DNA of 44,889 bases from Escherichia phage RuthEpting_Bas85, in sequence record PQ850624.1; one strand, written 5' to 3'. The position numbers and the translations under genes were made by a program. The notes beneath the pieces are model-generated. The model saw only the letters and a list, made by a program, of their open reading frames with translations, made no database searches and had not been told where the DNA came from. This document shows, piece after piece, positions 25,315-30,429 of this stretch (position 1 is the stretch's first letter; every line of letters begins with the position of its first letter).

Positions 25315-25773
25315 AGTAAATTTTGCTACGTTTATAGAATAAATTTTAGGGACCAGATCGCTGCACGCCCGACGGATGGCGTCAATATTCTTAGCGCAGT
25401 CTTCAATGATGACCAGTTCGGACACGTTCGCATAGCATACAAGGTTGAATACGGCGCTCGCCTTAAACACCGGCGGCGGGGTGTCGTCCAACATTTCGCG
25501 CAAGAACAGCCGACCAGACGGGAATATTTTCAACTGTTCGGCGGTAGTCTCCCAGCACGCATAATGCCGGTTAGACAGATACGCGATCTCGAAGCCTTGC
25601 TCTTTGTACATGCGCAGCAACGGCAGCATGTCCATGTTAAGGTCTTCGCGTACGTGTGCTTTGTGCCACTTCGCCCAAAAGGTTGATTTGGTTTTTATGC
25701 CAGGCACCAGGTCAGCACGCGCATCACTTGAACCATTAATAACGCCATCCAGATCACAAATCAGTAGTTTCAT
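25303..25773 (-). CDS. HAD-family phosphatase-like protein
   Basis: N-terminal DLDGV (DxDx[TV]) motif, later LSNR and IIED motifs consistent with HAD hydrolase motifs I-IV. Confidence 0.55.
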   Translation of the reverse strand: MKLLICDLDGVINGSSDARADLVPGIKTKSTFWAKWHKAHVREDLNMDMLPLLRMYKEQGFEIAYLSNRHYACWETTAEQLKIFPSGRLFLREMLDDTPPPVFKASAVFNLVCYANVSELVIIEDCAKNIDAIRRACSDLVPKIYSINVAKFTCNQ

Positions 25774-25994
25774 TTTAAGCTCTCAATAAGGGTGTAACGG
25801 GCGCTTCGCGCAGTAAAGGAGTTGCACACGAAATGGCAACGCTGAGTCATGACAAGCCAACCGGTGAGGTCAAGGCCCAGGATGTATTCGGGGCGAGACG
25901 CGCGCACCACACGATTGCGTCGCGGATCAATACCGTAGTCTTTTTGCATTTGGTCTACTACCGCGGGGTCGCGGTCAACGATTAAGATATTCAA
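25770..25994 (-). CDS. hypothetical protein
   Basis: 74-aa ORF in operon context (overlapping stops/starts); no motif recognised. Confidence 0.35.
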   Translation of the reverse strand: MNILIVDRDPAVVDQMQKDYGIDPRRNRVVRASRPEYILGLDLTGWLVMTQRCHFVCNSFTARSARYTLIESLK

Positions 25995-26460
25995 GGAGTT
26001 CTCCTTCGCTCATTATTTCAATTTGTGCGCTGCCGATGGGTGGCGCTTCGTCAAATATTATCAATTGCTGGCACTTGTTATTGCTCGGCCCAACTTCGCC
26101 GGTCACAGCATGGATGAATCGCACACGCCAGTCCAGAAGAATTATCATGTTGGCAGTCTTCCGGGCCAGCCTCGCCCACTTCGTCGACGTGTCCTGATTC
26201 AGTAGCATGACCGTATGGCGACCGTGCGCAGCGCACTCGACCCACGGCAGCGGATCGGAATACGGCGGATTGCACCACTTCCACCCTTTCAACTCTGACC
26301 AGTCCGCCTCAAGCGCGCTATGCTCTGCCGTGAAGTAGCGCGGTAACAGGTGATTGGTGTCGCTTGCCGCCATATCGTAACGAAATCGGTACTTACGGCG
26401 CAGCGGTTTAAATAATGCTGGCGGCGTGCGCCAGCTATCCTTTTGCTCACTCTTCTGCAT
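25975..26460 (-). CDS. DNA N6-adenine methyltransferase (phage Dam-like)
   Basis: 161 aa with catalytic NPPY motif (WCNPPYSD) and a phage Dam-like N-terminus (SWRTPP). Confidence 0.8.
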   Translation of the reverse strand: MQKSEQKDSWRTPPALFKPLRRKYRFRYDMAASDTNHLLPRYFTAEHSALEADWSELKGWKWCNPPYSDPLPWVECAAHGRHTVMLLNQDTSTKWARLARKTANMIILLDWRVRFIHAVTGEVGPSNNKCQQLIIFDEAPPIGSAQIEIMSEGELLEYLNR

Positions 26461-26911
26461 GGTCGGTGTCTATCGCGTAAAGGGCAATCTTGTCCCCTTT
26501 CTTTAGGATTCGCTGCAATCGCTGCGTCTCCGACACCCCCAAAGGGCGCGCGTCCGGGTAGAAGTTGCCGTTTGTTGGGTGTCTCCACGCGACCAGCACC
26601 AGGTCTTTACGGGCGACCGCAGACTGGCGGCCCTTCGGACGCACGTACGCCTCGGCACGTTTGCAATGCTCACGCAGACCTTCAGCCGTCATGCGATTAA
26701 GCACCGCGGTGGTTTTGTATCCGGTGCGCTGCATAATCCCCATCAGTTCGAACAGCAGTTCGAAGCGCTCCTCTAACTCCTTGCGCACCTTCTCCTCACC
26801 TTCATAGCTCGCAAGGTAGGTGTCTGCCAGCGCGTTCGCGCGTTCGGCCTGTTCGCGGGCTTCGAGGCACTGCGCGGCCCAGTAATTTTTCTCTTCTTGT
26901 AAAATTTTCAT
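26447..26911 (-). CDS. hypothetical protein
   Basis: 154 aa; coiled-coil-like N-terminus; no motif recognised. Confidence 0.45.
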   Translation of the reverse strand: MKILQEEKNYWAAQCLEAREQAERANALADTYLASYEGEEKVRKELEERFELLFELMGIMQRTGYKTTAVLNRMTAEGLREHCKRAEAYVRPKGRQSAVARKDLVLVAWRHPTNGNFYPDARPLGVSETQRLQRILKKGDKIALYAIDTDHAEE

Positions 26912-27154
26912 TTATTTAAGCTCCGTAGTGCGGATTTCATCGCGTGGGATAAATTTGCCGTCCATCTCTACCCAGCAAACACCGTAGCGCCATTGGGTAT
27001 TACGGCCTGTTTGCTCGGCGTACACGGTCTGGCATTCGTAGCGGTCGACGTAGTAAATAGCCGTAGAAGGGATACCAATACAACCGGCAAACATGAGGGT
27101 TAGTATTACCCAAAATCGAAGGTCGCCATCGTAGTCGAAAAACAATGATTTCAT
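26912..27154 (-). CDS. small membrane protein (putative)
   Basis: Start at ATG 27154 (RBS GGAGA); 80 aa with one strong TM segment (FWVILTLMFAGCIGIPSTAIYYV). Confidence 0.4.
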   Translation of the reverse strand: MKSLFFDYDGDLRFWVILTLMFAGCIGIPSTAIYYVDRYECQTVYAEQTGRNTQWRYGVCWVEMDGKFIPRDEIRTTELK

Positions 27155-27234
27155 CGTAATGTCTCCAGGTATTAAAAAGGGCGTCCAACCGGACACCCTT
27201 AAGATAATGCAACCAATCTAATTACGCAACCAAT

Positions 27235-27558
27235 TTATTCATAAAAATTTGGGTCGCGCGCTACGTCTACCAGATACAAGTTGCTCATGCGGTTGCCGTA
27301 GTGCCCTGGCGTGCGCTGGCGGCACACAACGGCGAAGCCTGGAGGGATTGTATTGCCAGTCTCGATAATCCACGCCACGCGCGCGCCAGACAGCGTCTTG
27401 CCGTTGCATTCGATACGAGTACCGCCATCAGCGGTGTTAAGGTTGCCAATCTTGCAGCCGGTGGACTTCAGACGGATGACGCCGGTTTTGCTGTCGTAGG
27501 TGAATAACTGGTTAGTCATTGCAACCGAGAAGTCGATGGCTTCGAATGTAGTATTCAT
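27235..27558 (-). CDS. HNH_3/AP2-like domain protein with non-canonical catalytic positions
   Basis: 107 aa; pattern ARVAWIIETGNTIPPGFAVVCRQ...GNRMSNLYL parallels the HRLVW...G.IP.G..VDHID.N..NL scaffold of phage HNH_3 endonucleases, but the two His positions are Ala and Cys/Arg. Confidence 0.4.
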   Translation of the reverse strand: MNTTFEAIDFSVAMTNQLFTYDSKTGVIRLKSTGCKIGNLNTADGGTRIECNGKTLSGARVAWIIETGNTIPPGFAVVCRQRTPGHYGNRMSNLYLVDVARDPNFYE

Positions 27559-28250
27559 TTTAAATTTTCCTCATTGACTGCTATTGCGAAGCCGCGCGGA
27601 GTGAGCGACCGGATTAATTTGGTGCGGGCAGATTTGCCACCGAGGCGACTATACTGCTTCGAGTACCCTTTTTCAACGAATACCGGCTTTTTCTCCGGCA
27701 TACGAAAGCCATTGCCGGTCCATAAACAGGTCAGCTTTGGATATGAATCGCGGTCGTTGATGTATTCCGGGAACAACGGATGTACGTCATCCTCCGGCAG
27801 ATAGCCGCCATACTCCCACGGATCAAACGAGTGGTCTGGCTTGCGCCACTGGGTGGATAGCACACTGCGCGGATTCTCAATCATATATGGCACTTCAAAG
27901 AAGTCACCCAGGTAAGCGGCAATCTTCGCGGTGCGCACTGCCTTAAGCTGAAAGGCGGGGTCTTTCGCACGCTTGCACGGGAAAGCTGTCGCACCGCTCA
28001 CCGCCAGATCCGTACACGGCGGAAACGCGTAGATAATATCCGGCGTGCCGAAATCGCCATTCATCGCGCGGTCCACGAAGTCCAGATCGATAAACTCGTT
28101 ACGATAGCGGATACCGCGACCATAAATACGGTAGTCAAGGTAAGACCCGTGATCGGCTTCCGAGTAGTTGAAACAGTAGCATTTATGCCCCATCTCGGCA
28201 GCGCGCTCTATCATCAAGCCGCTGCCGTCAAATAATGACCAGATAATCAC
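27555..28250 (-). CDS. C5-cytosine DNA methyltransferase-like protein (short form)
   Basis: GTG start; 231 aa; motif I LFDGSG, motif IV FPPC...SGA, motif VI-like IENP; too short for a standard target-recognition domain. Confidence 0.55.
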   Translation of the reverse strand: MIIWSLFDGSGLMIERAAEMGHKCYCFNYSEADHGSYLDYRIYGRGIRYRNEFIDLDFVDRAMNGDFGTPDIIYAFPPCTDLAVSGATAFPCKRAKDPAFQLKAVRTAKIAAYLGDFFEVPYMIENPRSVLSTQWRKPDHSFDPWEYGGYLPEDDVHPLFPEYINDRDSYPKLTCLWTGNGFRMPEKKPVFVEKGYSKQYSRLGGKSARTKLIRSLTPRGFAIAVNEENLK

Positions 28251-29671
28251 TTGCGCACCTTCTTAGCTTTCATGTATTCCATCAAGTCGTCCTGGATGTC
28301 GCGCTTACCATCGCGGCGGTCCGCCACCAGTTCGTCCAGTGTCCCGCGTGCCTGGATAATATAGACGAATACCGGTCGAGGGTGCCCGGCTTGCATCTGG
28401 CGAACTGGCCCGATACGCTCCACGATCTGCGCAAAGTGCTCATAGTTCCACGTATCCGAGAAGATAGCCAGGTGATGACCGCCGTCCTGCAAGTTGAGGC
28501 CATGACCAGCCGATGCCGGGTGTGCGAACATGATGGGAATCTCGCCCCTGTTCCACGCTTCCATATCCTTATTGCCCTGCTTACCCTTACCCATCGCAAC
28601 GCCGTGGGGAAACTTCTTCTTCAGACGTGCCAGGTCGTGCTTATACTGGTACGCAACGAGCAACGGCGCACCGTTCAACTCCTCTACGATACTTTCCAGC
28701 GCGTCCAGCTTGGCGTCGTGAATCTTCTCCCACTCGTCGGTCCGTTCGCCATCCTCGTCCACCTTATACACGGCCCCTGAAGCAAGCTGGAGGCACTTGA
28801 TGGTCTTCGCCGCAGCGTTCGCCGCCTCAACTGTTCCGCTTTCCAGTTCGGCAAATAGCTCGCTTTCAAACTGGTCGTAAATCTTGCGGGCTTTCTTCGG
28901 CAGGTCCACAACAACCGGCGTATAGATTGGCTTGTCACATCCGAAGTATTCAGCCGCATCAACGGTAAGGGATACGTCGGACAGGCGTTGTTGGATCTCT
29001 TTCTCGGAGTTCTTAAGCGGGGCGTGCTGCATAGTGAAGCTGCCAGGCTTAACAGGCTTGCTAATAAACCAGCGATCGGTGAATGCCTTATAGCTACTGC
29101 CGAGCCGTTCGCCACCGTCGACAAACCACGTCTGACCCCATAGGTCTTTCAGCCCGTTTGGTGCTGGTGTGCCGGTCAGGTTAATCCAGCGCTTGACGTG
29201 CTTATGTGCGATCGCCGCCAGTGCGCGTGCGCGCTTACTGCCCTGCTTACTGCGGTAGCCTTTCAGCTTAGTGGATTCATCGGCAACAACGACCGTAAAA
29301 GGCCACTCGTCGCCGCAATACTCGACAAGCCACTCAACCACATCGTAGTTGACGCACACAACGTTAGCGTTGCTTTCAAGCGCCGCAATGCGGTCCTTCT
29401 CCGGCCCGGTGCCGTCTACTACCAGCAGGGCGGGGAATCTCCATTTTTCTTGTTCCGGGGGCCATGTGCCGGAGGCAACGCGTAGCGGGGCCAGCACCAG
29501 TACGCGGTCCTCCTGGTTGGACAGGATGCCAGTCTGGAACATTTTGTTTAGCGCCCACATAGTCGCGCCGGTTTTACCGGACCCCATTGTCGCCCAAATA
29601 TTGCAGCGCTCATGCTTGAGAATAAACGCGGTTATCAATTTCTGATATTCGCGACGTCGGAATCGTGCCAT
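28247..29671 (-). CDS. SNF2-family helicase
   Basis: Start at ATG 29671 (MARFRRREYQ); motifs GSGKTG, DESTKL, LTGTPAPN, AGHGLNLQ. Confidence 0.8.
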   Translation of the reverse strand: MARFRRREYQKLITAFILKHERCNIWATMGSGKTGATMWALNKMFQTGILSNQEDRVLVLAPLRVASGTWPPEQEKWRFPALLVVDGTGPEKDRIAALESNANVVCVNYDVVEWLVEYCGDEWPFTVVVADESTKLKGYRSKQGSKRARALAAIAHKHVKRWINLTGTPAPNGLKDLWGQTWFVDGGERLGSSYKAFTDRWFISKPVKPGSFTMQHAPLKNSEKEIQQRLSDVSLTVDAAEYFGCDKPIYTPVVVDLPKKARKIYDQFESELFAELESGTVEAANAAAKTIKCLQLASGAVYKVDEDGERTDEWEKIHDAKLDALESIVEELNGAPLLVAYQYKHDLARLKKKFPHGVAMGKGKQGNKDMEAWNRGEIPIMFAHPASAGHGLNLQDGGHHLAIFSDTWNYEHFAQIVERIGPVRQMQAGHPRPVFVYIIQARGTLDELVADRRDGKRDIQDDLMEYMKAKKVRK

Positions 29672-29936: not shown

Positions 29937-30110
29937 TTATTCTTGTTCTGCGCGATAGCGGCGCTGCCGTTCACGTTCTTTCTTATTGCGGCACGATTTG
30001 CACTCGGCCCGATGCCCGTCTGGACTGCGCGCAGTCTTTCCGGTGTATTTGTGGAACTGGGATAGCGGCTTGATGCATCCACAATTACTACAACGTTTTT
30101 CTTCAATCAT
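29937..30110 (-). CDS. small zinc-ribbon protein (putative)
   Basis: Start at ATG 30110 (MIEEKRCSNCGC..., RBS GAGGA); 57 aa with CxxCxC...CxxC pattern and basic C-tail. Confidence 0.4.
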   Translation of the reverse strand: MIEEKRCSNCGCIKPLSQFHKYTGKTARSPDGHRAECKSCRNKKERERQRRYRAEQE

Positions 30111-30150
30111 TTCTAAAATCCTCGATAGGGCTAACCGGCACACTATACCG

Positions 30151-30429
30151 CTACGCGACCAATTCAGCAACCAATAAATCGCAGTCGGCTATGTTGTCAA
30201 TAACGCGAACGTCAGCACCGCGGCGGGCCATTCGCTCATGTTCTCGCACCTGGTGCGGCTTCGGTTTTCCTCCGGGGCGCTTCACTTCGACGAATACTAT
30301 GATGCCGTTGATGATAATAATCAGGTCGGGCGCACCTGCGCGCCCCTCCCATGCCAGCTTGCGGCAGAATCCGCCAACCTCTTTCACCCGTCGCATCAGG
30401 TGACTTTGAATCTTGCCTTCTGGTGTCAT
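30151..30429 (-). CDS. VRR-NUC domain nuclease
   Basis: 92 aa; PD-(D/E)xK signature GAPDLIII...VFVEVKRPGGKP...Q typical of VRR-NUC domains. Confidence 0.8.
   Translation of the reverse strand: MTPEGKIQSHLMRRVKEVGGFCRKLAWEGRAGAPDLIIIINGIIVFVEVKRPGGKPKPHQVREHERMARRGADVRVIDNIADCDLLVAELVA

Follow-up and report, generated by a model that had tools for sequence, protein, structure and literature searches.

What kind of enzyme can a DNA cytosine-C5 methyltransferase (C5-MTase) of only 231 amino acids (aa) be? This question is raised by a locus of Escherichia phage RuthEpting_Bas85 (record PQ850624.1; the window analysed is the whole stretch of 44,889 nucleotides), within which a sequence-only reading had proposed two DNA methyltransferase-type genes, one of them Dam-like and the other encoding an unusually short C5-MTase-like protein that could be a minimal cytosine methyltransferase, an enzyme dependent upon a partner, or a methyltransferase fold repurposed for something else. 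The analysis described here indicates that the 231-aa protein is very probably a stand-alone, minimal DNA cytosine-C5 methyltransferase that depends on S-adenosylmethionine (AdoMet) and belongs to the family PHROG 757, with the role set out below, and that its 161-aa companion is an orphan phage Dam. The fold, motifs I, IV and VI, the homology and the absence of a conserved partner were computed here; the formation of 5-methylcytosine (5mC) and activity without other phage proteins come from the literature on a homologue; and the target sites and an anti-restriction role in this phage are what we infer.

Both methyltransferase genes, together with that of an HNH-like protein, were located on the minus strand at the positions first given for them, with three open reading frames between the two, as had been described (Table 1). 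The region from 25900 to 28300 is 100% identical to the corresponding region of Escherichia phage Haito_Bas83 (PQ850604.1) in a nucleotide search, and 157 phage records match it in all, mostly Escherichia phages (Dhillonvirus); 143 of these match at least 80% of the query length, mostly with identities of 80-90%. The 231-aa protein itself matches phrog_757 ('DNA methyltransferase') at E=5e-82 and has homologues in 2,881 clusters within a set of 5.8 billion proteins (1,962 representatives at 50% identity). When it is used as a tblastn query, matches occur in 1,510 of 50,697 phage records, which range over Dhillonvirus, Drexlerviridae (including Klebsiella Webervirus), Vequintavirinae, Krischvirus, Nonanavirus and Vibrio phages; among the matches listed, the protein is 97-98% identical in other Dhillonvirus genomes. 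Given the 157 records that match the region, the 2,881 clusters and the 1,510 phage records, these are genes far beyond what chance would produce.

The assignment of the shorter gene to the C5-MTases rests on motifs and on fold. A family alignment of 78 diverse members was compared, using hhalign, with a reference alignment of ten canonical C5-MTases (M.HhaI, E. coli Dcm and eight phage enzymes). The two match with a probability of 80% (E=1.4e-5), residues 1-134 of the protein being laid upon residues 10-128 of M.HhaI in a register that places F7 on F18, PPC79 on FPC81 and ENP on ENV. (With a shallow family alignment compared against E. coli Dcm alone the probability was 0.3%; the comparison worked only after both profiles had been broadened.) Motifs I, IV and VI, which had originally been read from the letters, are thereby placed by profile-profile alignment as well as by the fold. 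Nine residues are invariant across the 78 family members, namely C79, G86, E125, N126, P127, P144, Y170, W177 and P185. By analogy with the canonical enzymes, motif I would form the AdoMet loop, the cysteine of the motif IV Pro-Cys (C79) would act as the nucleophile, and the glutamate of motif VI (E125) would protonate N3 of the target base.

An AlphaFold2 (AF2) model of the protein, built with 45 relatives, has a predicted local distance difference test score (pLDDT) of 91.3 and a predicted template modelling score (pTM) of 0.90, and shows the three-dimensional fold of a C5-MTase. A Foldseek search of the PDB with this model returns the methyltransferase domains of DNMT3A and DNMT3B first (E about 3e-6), and a structure search of BFVD returns members of the family first, followed by other viral cytosine methylases. 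The resemblance to DNMT3 is one of fold: the catalytic domains of DNMT3A and DNMT3B are only 13-16% identical to the 231-aa protein and, at about 280 aa, are larger; DNMT3 works as a dimer or tetramer upon CpG targets. DNMT3 also retains motifs VIII-X.

What most distinguishes the protein from classical C5-MTases (M.HhaI, M.HaeIII and E. coli Dcm; PF00145) is how little of it there is. PHROG 757 members are nearly all 205-260 aa long as against 303-490 aa for the ten canonical enzymes aligned, which bears out its description as unusually short; it falls about 70-100 residues below the shortest of the aligned enzymes (303-327 aa) and is half as long as E. coli Dcm (472 aa). The shortening lies in the second half of the protein. 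M.HhaI has about 150 residues from motif VI to motif IX, whereas here about 87 separate motif VI from a motif-IX-like segment. Strand 7 and the C-terminal helices are only about 28 residues apart, so that the earlier statement that there is too little sequence for a conventional target-recognition domain stands; this short region consists of a variable core (approximately residues 186-202) flanked by the conserved P185 and by an LGG-K/S motif. When the C-terminal halves of the two alignments are compared by hhalign the result is not significant: the best local solution places RSLTPRGFAIAV upon the motif IX segment RKLTPRECARLQ (E=0.009, probability 4%), with R214-S-L-T-P-R219 on RKLTPRE and with a glycine replacing the conserved glutamate, and the protein ends 6 residues beyond this segment. 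The enzyme so keeps the catalytic half of the fold but has shed the segment bearing motif X and the greater part of the classical recognition domain. Target recognition would then have shrunk to those 28 or so residues along with a conserved insert specific to the family, within which P144, D168, Y170 and K172 vary little or not at all, and the chain would finish with a helix resembling motif IX, motif X not being recognisable.

That such an architecture can work is suggested by a close relative. The trigger of the retron Ec86 (also called Eco1) is the 711-bp 'dcm' gene of phage K42, a strain of KarlJaspers (Bas06) with 95.4% pairwise genome identity to Bas06 (10.1101/2023.08.16.553469, a preprint). 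Phages that escape the retron lose dcm; expressed by itself from pBAD, K42 Dcm is toxic solely when the retron is present and raises 5mC in the multicopy single-stranded DNA (msDNA) of Ec86, as measured by liquid chromatography-mass spectrometry; and a mutant in which four residues were changed together (C82A/E128A/K175A/K176A) is inert (10.1101/2023.08.16.553469). Later retron papers restate this Dcm trigger. The Bas06 gene bas06_0055, likewise of 711 bp, encodes a protein with exactly C82, E128, K175 and K176, and the 231-aa protein is 53% identical to it over its full length (E=6e-85, with 231 of 236 residues aligned), the four residues corresponding to C79, E125, K172 and L173. The two proteins thus share family, architecture, catalytic cysteine and glutamate, the first lysine (K172, within the conserved insert) and the C-terminal motif RSLTPRGFA, and both are encoded by orphan genes in the early or replication region of a siphovirus. 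They differ slightly in length (236 versus 231 aa), in phage lineage (Drexlerviridae versus Dhillonvirus) and in the variable segment at approximately residues 186-202, so that identical specificity is not guaranteed. Taken together, the K42 data and the homology give PHROG 757 a member for which there is direct evidence of DNA C5-methylation, and which acts without any other phage protein.

Several points weigh against this assignment. The evidence for activity comes from a preprint on a 53%-identical homologue and not from the 231-aa protein itself, and one of the four residues mutated in that homologue differs here (K176 is replaced by L173). Searches of Pfam, NCBIfam, PADLOC and PDB sequences with the 231-aa protein return nothing; in particular, PF00145 does not match it even at E<=10 and so does not reach its gathering threshold, though this model does match 28 of the 45 close relatives weakly (best E=1.3e-6). 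Nor do family profiles find anything significant among PDB sequences, the nearest being M.HaeIII (E=0.26) and DNMT2 (E=0.51), both in the correct register from motif I to motif IV. Two motifs of the classical enzymes were not detected: motif VIII (QxRxR) by hhalign of the whole protein and of the C-terminal halves, and motif X (GN) by inspection of the sequence and by hhalign of the C-terminal halves. It is possible that the strand Y170-x-K172-x-T174 substitutes functionally for motif VIII. Within motif I the first glycine is not conserved in distant relatives, where the phenylalanine, the aspartate and the last glycine alone persist. As to specificity, CCWGG was assumed for K42 Dcm from the host enzyme and is supported by msDNA site mutants alone (10.1101/2023.08.16.553469), and MG1655, the host of the retron Ec86 experiments, carries an intact dcm. 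Finally, phenotyping of Drexlerviridae in the BASEL collection did not connect methyltransferase genes with resistance to restriction in any simple way.

A related observation is that msDNA 5mC was low in MG1655 when the phage enzyme was absent (10.1101/2023.08.16.553469), despite the intact host dcm: either the msDNA site is inaccessible to host Dcm, or the phage enzyme has a specificity other than CCWGG.

The three readings that had been offered with caution fare differently in the light of this evidence: that of a minimal cytosine methyltransferase is favoured by the 53%-identical homologue that is active alone, and the other two are not supported. The less improbable of these, though still quite unlikely, is that the C5-MTase fold has been repurposed, either to transfer another group (carboxymethyl from carboxy-S-adenosylmethionine (Cx-SAM), as in CmoX) or to act upon another substrate (tRNA, as in DNMT2). 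CmoX, a phage DNA cytosine C5-carboxymethyltransferase (PDB 8yf3), does share with the 231-aa protein the C5-MTase fold, the PPC nucleophile motif and a phage origin. The CmoX type, however, is defined by SPPC and by an arginine at the position of the motif X asparagine, with cmoA alongside (PMC12783734); CmoX is also longer (the crystallised chain has 372 residues) and lies beside cmoA and an amide ligase. None of these traits applies here: the motif reads FPPC; motif X is not alignable; at the candidate arginine, R219, distant relatives have many different residues; and no cmoA or ligase homologue of that kind is annotated nearby in PQ850604.1. A CmoX-like carboxymethyltransferase was rejected, accordingly, on the criteria of both motif and gene context.

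Marginally less probable again is that the 231-aa protein is only a catalytic core, and that it relies for DNA recognition on another phage protein (the HNH-like neighbour, for example), in the manner of the two-polypeptide enzymes M.AquI and M.EcoHK31I. Such dependence would make sense of the tiny recognition segment and of the failure to detect motif X; the HNH-like gene is, besides, coupled to the methylase gene by an ATGA overlap, and it is itself a conserved gene, with 161 phage records, nearly all Dhillonvirus. K42 Dcm, on the other hand, works when expressed alone in E. coli, that is, in the absence of any other phage protein, and the distributions of the two genes disagree: the HNH-like protein occurs in 161 records versus 1,510 for the methylase, and among seven loci from six phage lineages the methylase is the sole gene common to all. 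As an obligate partner the HNH-like protein was rejected on this distribution (161 records, 5 clusters, 7 loci), although a partner encoded by the host is conceivable.

Least probable of all is that the protein is a catalytically inactive relic retained for DNA binding or regulation, for although motifs VIII and X escape detection and the catalytic cysteine is gone from some distant relatives (P0238 and P0245), C79 and ENP are invariant across the 78 diverse relatives, the homologue has an activity that its catalytic mutant lacks, and the protein retains its 97-98% identity among the Dhillonvirus matches listed.

The HNH-like neighbour merits a description of its own. Its match to phrog_99 ('HNH endonuclease') spans 91 of the 383 profile positions, that is, about a quarter; it has no match in Pfam or in the PDB; its AF2 model is of low confidence (pLDDT 56.9); and where the catalytic 'DH' would be expected, C-R is read by eye. 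The term 'degenerate' previously applied to it therefore seems plausible, judging from its residues. Besides Dhillonvirus, its 161 records include four Edwardsiella phages, and 151 of them match at 90% identity or more; only 5 clusters were found among the 5.8 billion proteins. A gene so nearly universal and so well conserved in Dhillonvirus fits the pattern of a fixed core gene and is hard to square with a mobile homing endonuclease.

Within the wider PHROG 757 family some relatives depart from the minimal architecture. One metagenomic protein of 563 aa (P0269) is a natural fusion of an N-terminal short C5-MTase domain with a C-terminal adenine methylase of the classical Dam type (DPPY), which supports a DNA-methylation context for the PHROG 757 domain; others (P0129, P0180, P0259 and P0264) carry N- or C-terminal extensions of unassigned function. 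The two relatives without the catalytic cysteine have PPSR or PPGR in place of PPC as well as long, low-complexity N-terminal regions, and, judging from these changes, may be inactive derivatives.

The companion gene is less puzzling. The 161-aa protein reaches 122.8 bits (E=1.5e-35) against the Pfam model PF05869, far above the gathering cut-off of 28.1, and its NPPY motif occupies residues 64-67 (nucleotides 26260-26271), in agreement with its initial description as a phage Dam-like N6-adenine methyltransferase; it also matches phrog_111 (E=2.8e-54) and the PADLOC model for orphan methyltransferases (E=3.8e-11). It scores below the equivalog cut-off of NCBIfam TIGR01712 (84.9 versus 97.05), and a sequence search of the PDB detects no relative with a solved structure. 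The PF05869 phage Dam family includes the Dam proteins of T1, HP1 and VT2-Sa. Like these, the 161-aa protein is a very small orphan adenine methylase; it carries NPPY, though it misses the equivalog cut-off; it is, in short, an ordinary small orphan N6-adenine methyltransferase of the phage Dam family. By analogy with characterised family members it is probably specific for GATC, which occurs 155 times in the genome and is mildly low in abundance (observed/expected 0.73).

The target site of the cytosine enzyme is a point of some interest; a literature search for direct evidence from methylomes or restriction digests, whether for Dhillonvirus or for PHROG 757 specificity, found nothing beyond the K42 preprint. 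Within the genome CCWGG occurs as often as expected (153 observed versus 156 expected), as does CCGG. Certain 6-bp palindromes, by contrast, are strongly avoided: GAATTC (1 versus 8.8 expected), CTGCAG (0 versus 9.3), GGTACC (0 versus 5.2) and CCWWGG (2 versus 11.7), that is, sites of the EcoRI, PstI, KpnI and StyI types; and CTAG is low (17 versus 59 expected). The lack of CCWGG depletion is compatible with protection at CCWGG but is not diagnostic of it, and motif statistics of this sort do not discriminate between specificities.

A mechanism consistent with these observations would be as follows. The 231-aa enzyme would be made from the replication or early module, coupled in translation to an SNF2 helicase, and, by analogy with K42 Dcm, would methylate C5 of cytosine in both phage and host DNA. 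If its site is CCWGG-like, as is probable, then this would protect the phage from EcoRII-type restriction in hosts without Dcm; the same anti-restriction logic may apply to the 161-aa Dam-family enzyme. There would also be a cost, in that phage Dcm enzymes can methylate the msDNA of retron Eco1/Ec86 and thereby set off abortive infection.

The genomic setting is as follows. Haito_Bas83 belongs to Dhillonvirus (according to the BASEL paper) and to the BASEL collection; on its minus strand the annotated order is DNA helicase, DNA methyltransferase (the 231-aa protein), HNH endonuclease, hypothetical protein, 'DNA ligase' and DNA methyltransferase (the Dam-like protein), and sister genomes label the two enzymes 'Dcm-like C5 cytosine methyltransferase' and 'Dam-like N6-adenine methyltransferase'. 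The GTG start of the 231-aa gene overlaps the stop of the SNF2 helicase gene (GTGA), and the ATG of the HNH-like gene overlaps the stop of the methylase gene (ATGA), which implies translational coupling of the helicase, methylase and HNH-like genes inside the replication module. Immediately upstream of the helicase (approximately 29937-30429, minus strand), annotation in the deposited record gives a Lar-like protein for restriction alleviation, together with a small endonuclease, so that both methylases lie within about 5 kb of another anti-restriction function.

Table 1. Genes of the methyltransferase locus and features of the 231-aa protein, in window coordinates
Feature	Position	Strand	Basis
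Dam-like N6-adenine DNA methyltransferase, 161 aa	25975..26460	-	PF05869, phrog_111, NPPY
154-aa protein, function unassigned, labelled 'DNA ligase'	26447..26911	-	phrog_10530 E=1.4e-91
Small protein with one hydrophobic segment	26912..27196 (annotated start: 26912-27154, 80 aa)	-	phrog_18961 E=1.7e-51; no other family match
HNH-like protein, 107 aa	27235..27558	-	phrog_99 E=3.7e-15
Very probable minimal cytosine-C5 DNA methyltransferase ('phage Dcm'), 231 aa	27555..28250	-	PHROG 757
SNF2-family DNA helicase, upstream of the 231-aa gene	28247..29671	-	PF00176 E=1.1e-10; phrog_62 E=2.9e-156
Motif I FDGSG, residues 7-11, predicted AdoMet-binding loop after strand 1	28218..28232	-	hhalign to M.HhaI F18-G22
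Motif IV PPC, residues 77-79, predicted catalytic C79	28014..28022	-	hhalign to M.HhaI P80-C81; equivalent to C82 of K42 Dcm
Motif VI ENP, residues 125-127	27870..27878	-	hhalign to M.HhaI ENV 119-121; E125 equivalent to E128 of K42 Dcm
Family-specific conserved insert, residues 143-173, between strands 6 and 7, ending at K172 (K175 of K42 Dcm)	27732..27824	-	Conservation and model secondary structure
Very short target-recognition-like segment, residues 180-207, 28 aa	27630..27713	-	Between strand 7 (174-179) and C-terminal helices
C-terminal RSLTPRGFAIAV motif, residues 214-225, motif-IX-like	27576..27611	-	Weak hhalign to RKLTPRECARLQ

Of the remaining neighbours, the 154-aa protein has no match in Pfam, NCBIfam or PADLOC, and a related record carries the remark 'Possible DNA ligase but no evidence'; the protein is far too small for a ligase, and its label looks like a propagated annotation. 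Beside the Dam-like gene, a 74-aa hypothetical protein (25770-25994, minus strand) shares 37% identity with a homologue, gp75, that is encoded close to the methylase in Salmonella phage 9NA.

In substance the finding is not new: an annotation of the genome exists, the family has a name, and both the activity of a homologue and its biological consequence have been described. With relatives already labelled 'Dcm-like' and the homologue's role as the retron Eco1 trigger on record, the practical importance is small. Nevertheless, PHROG 757 is about as common in sequenced phages as are the classical C5-MTases (1,510 versus 1,730 records), and, inasmuch as Pfam, NCBIfam and PADLOC models miss the 231-aa protein, annotation pipelines that rely upon them may overlook it in some genomes. 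A bolder and rather doubtful proposition is that no working DNA cytosine-C5 methyltransferase has a smaller architecture than this family of about 230 residues, which would manage with some 28 residues for recognition and lack a recognisable motif X. If so, then DNA would be read in a way unlike that of classical monomeric enzymes, whether through a DNMT3-like dimer, through the conserved insert at residues 143-173, or at a shorter or more degenerate site instead of CCWGG, and the interpretation of retron Eco1 triggering would change too. A naturally minimised C5-MTase could show which parts of the fold are dispensable and could serve as a compact methylation tool. The locus poses a modest but real question of structural enzymology, namely by what means a protein of this size would recognise its DNA target and close the pocket for its cofactor.

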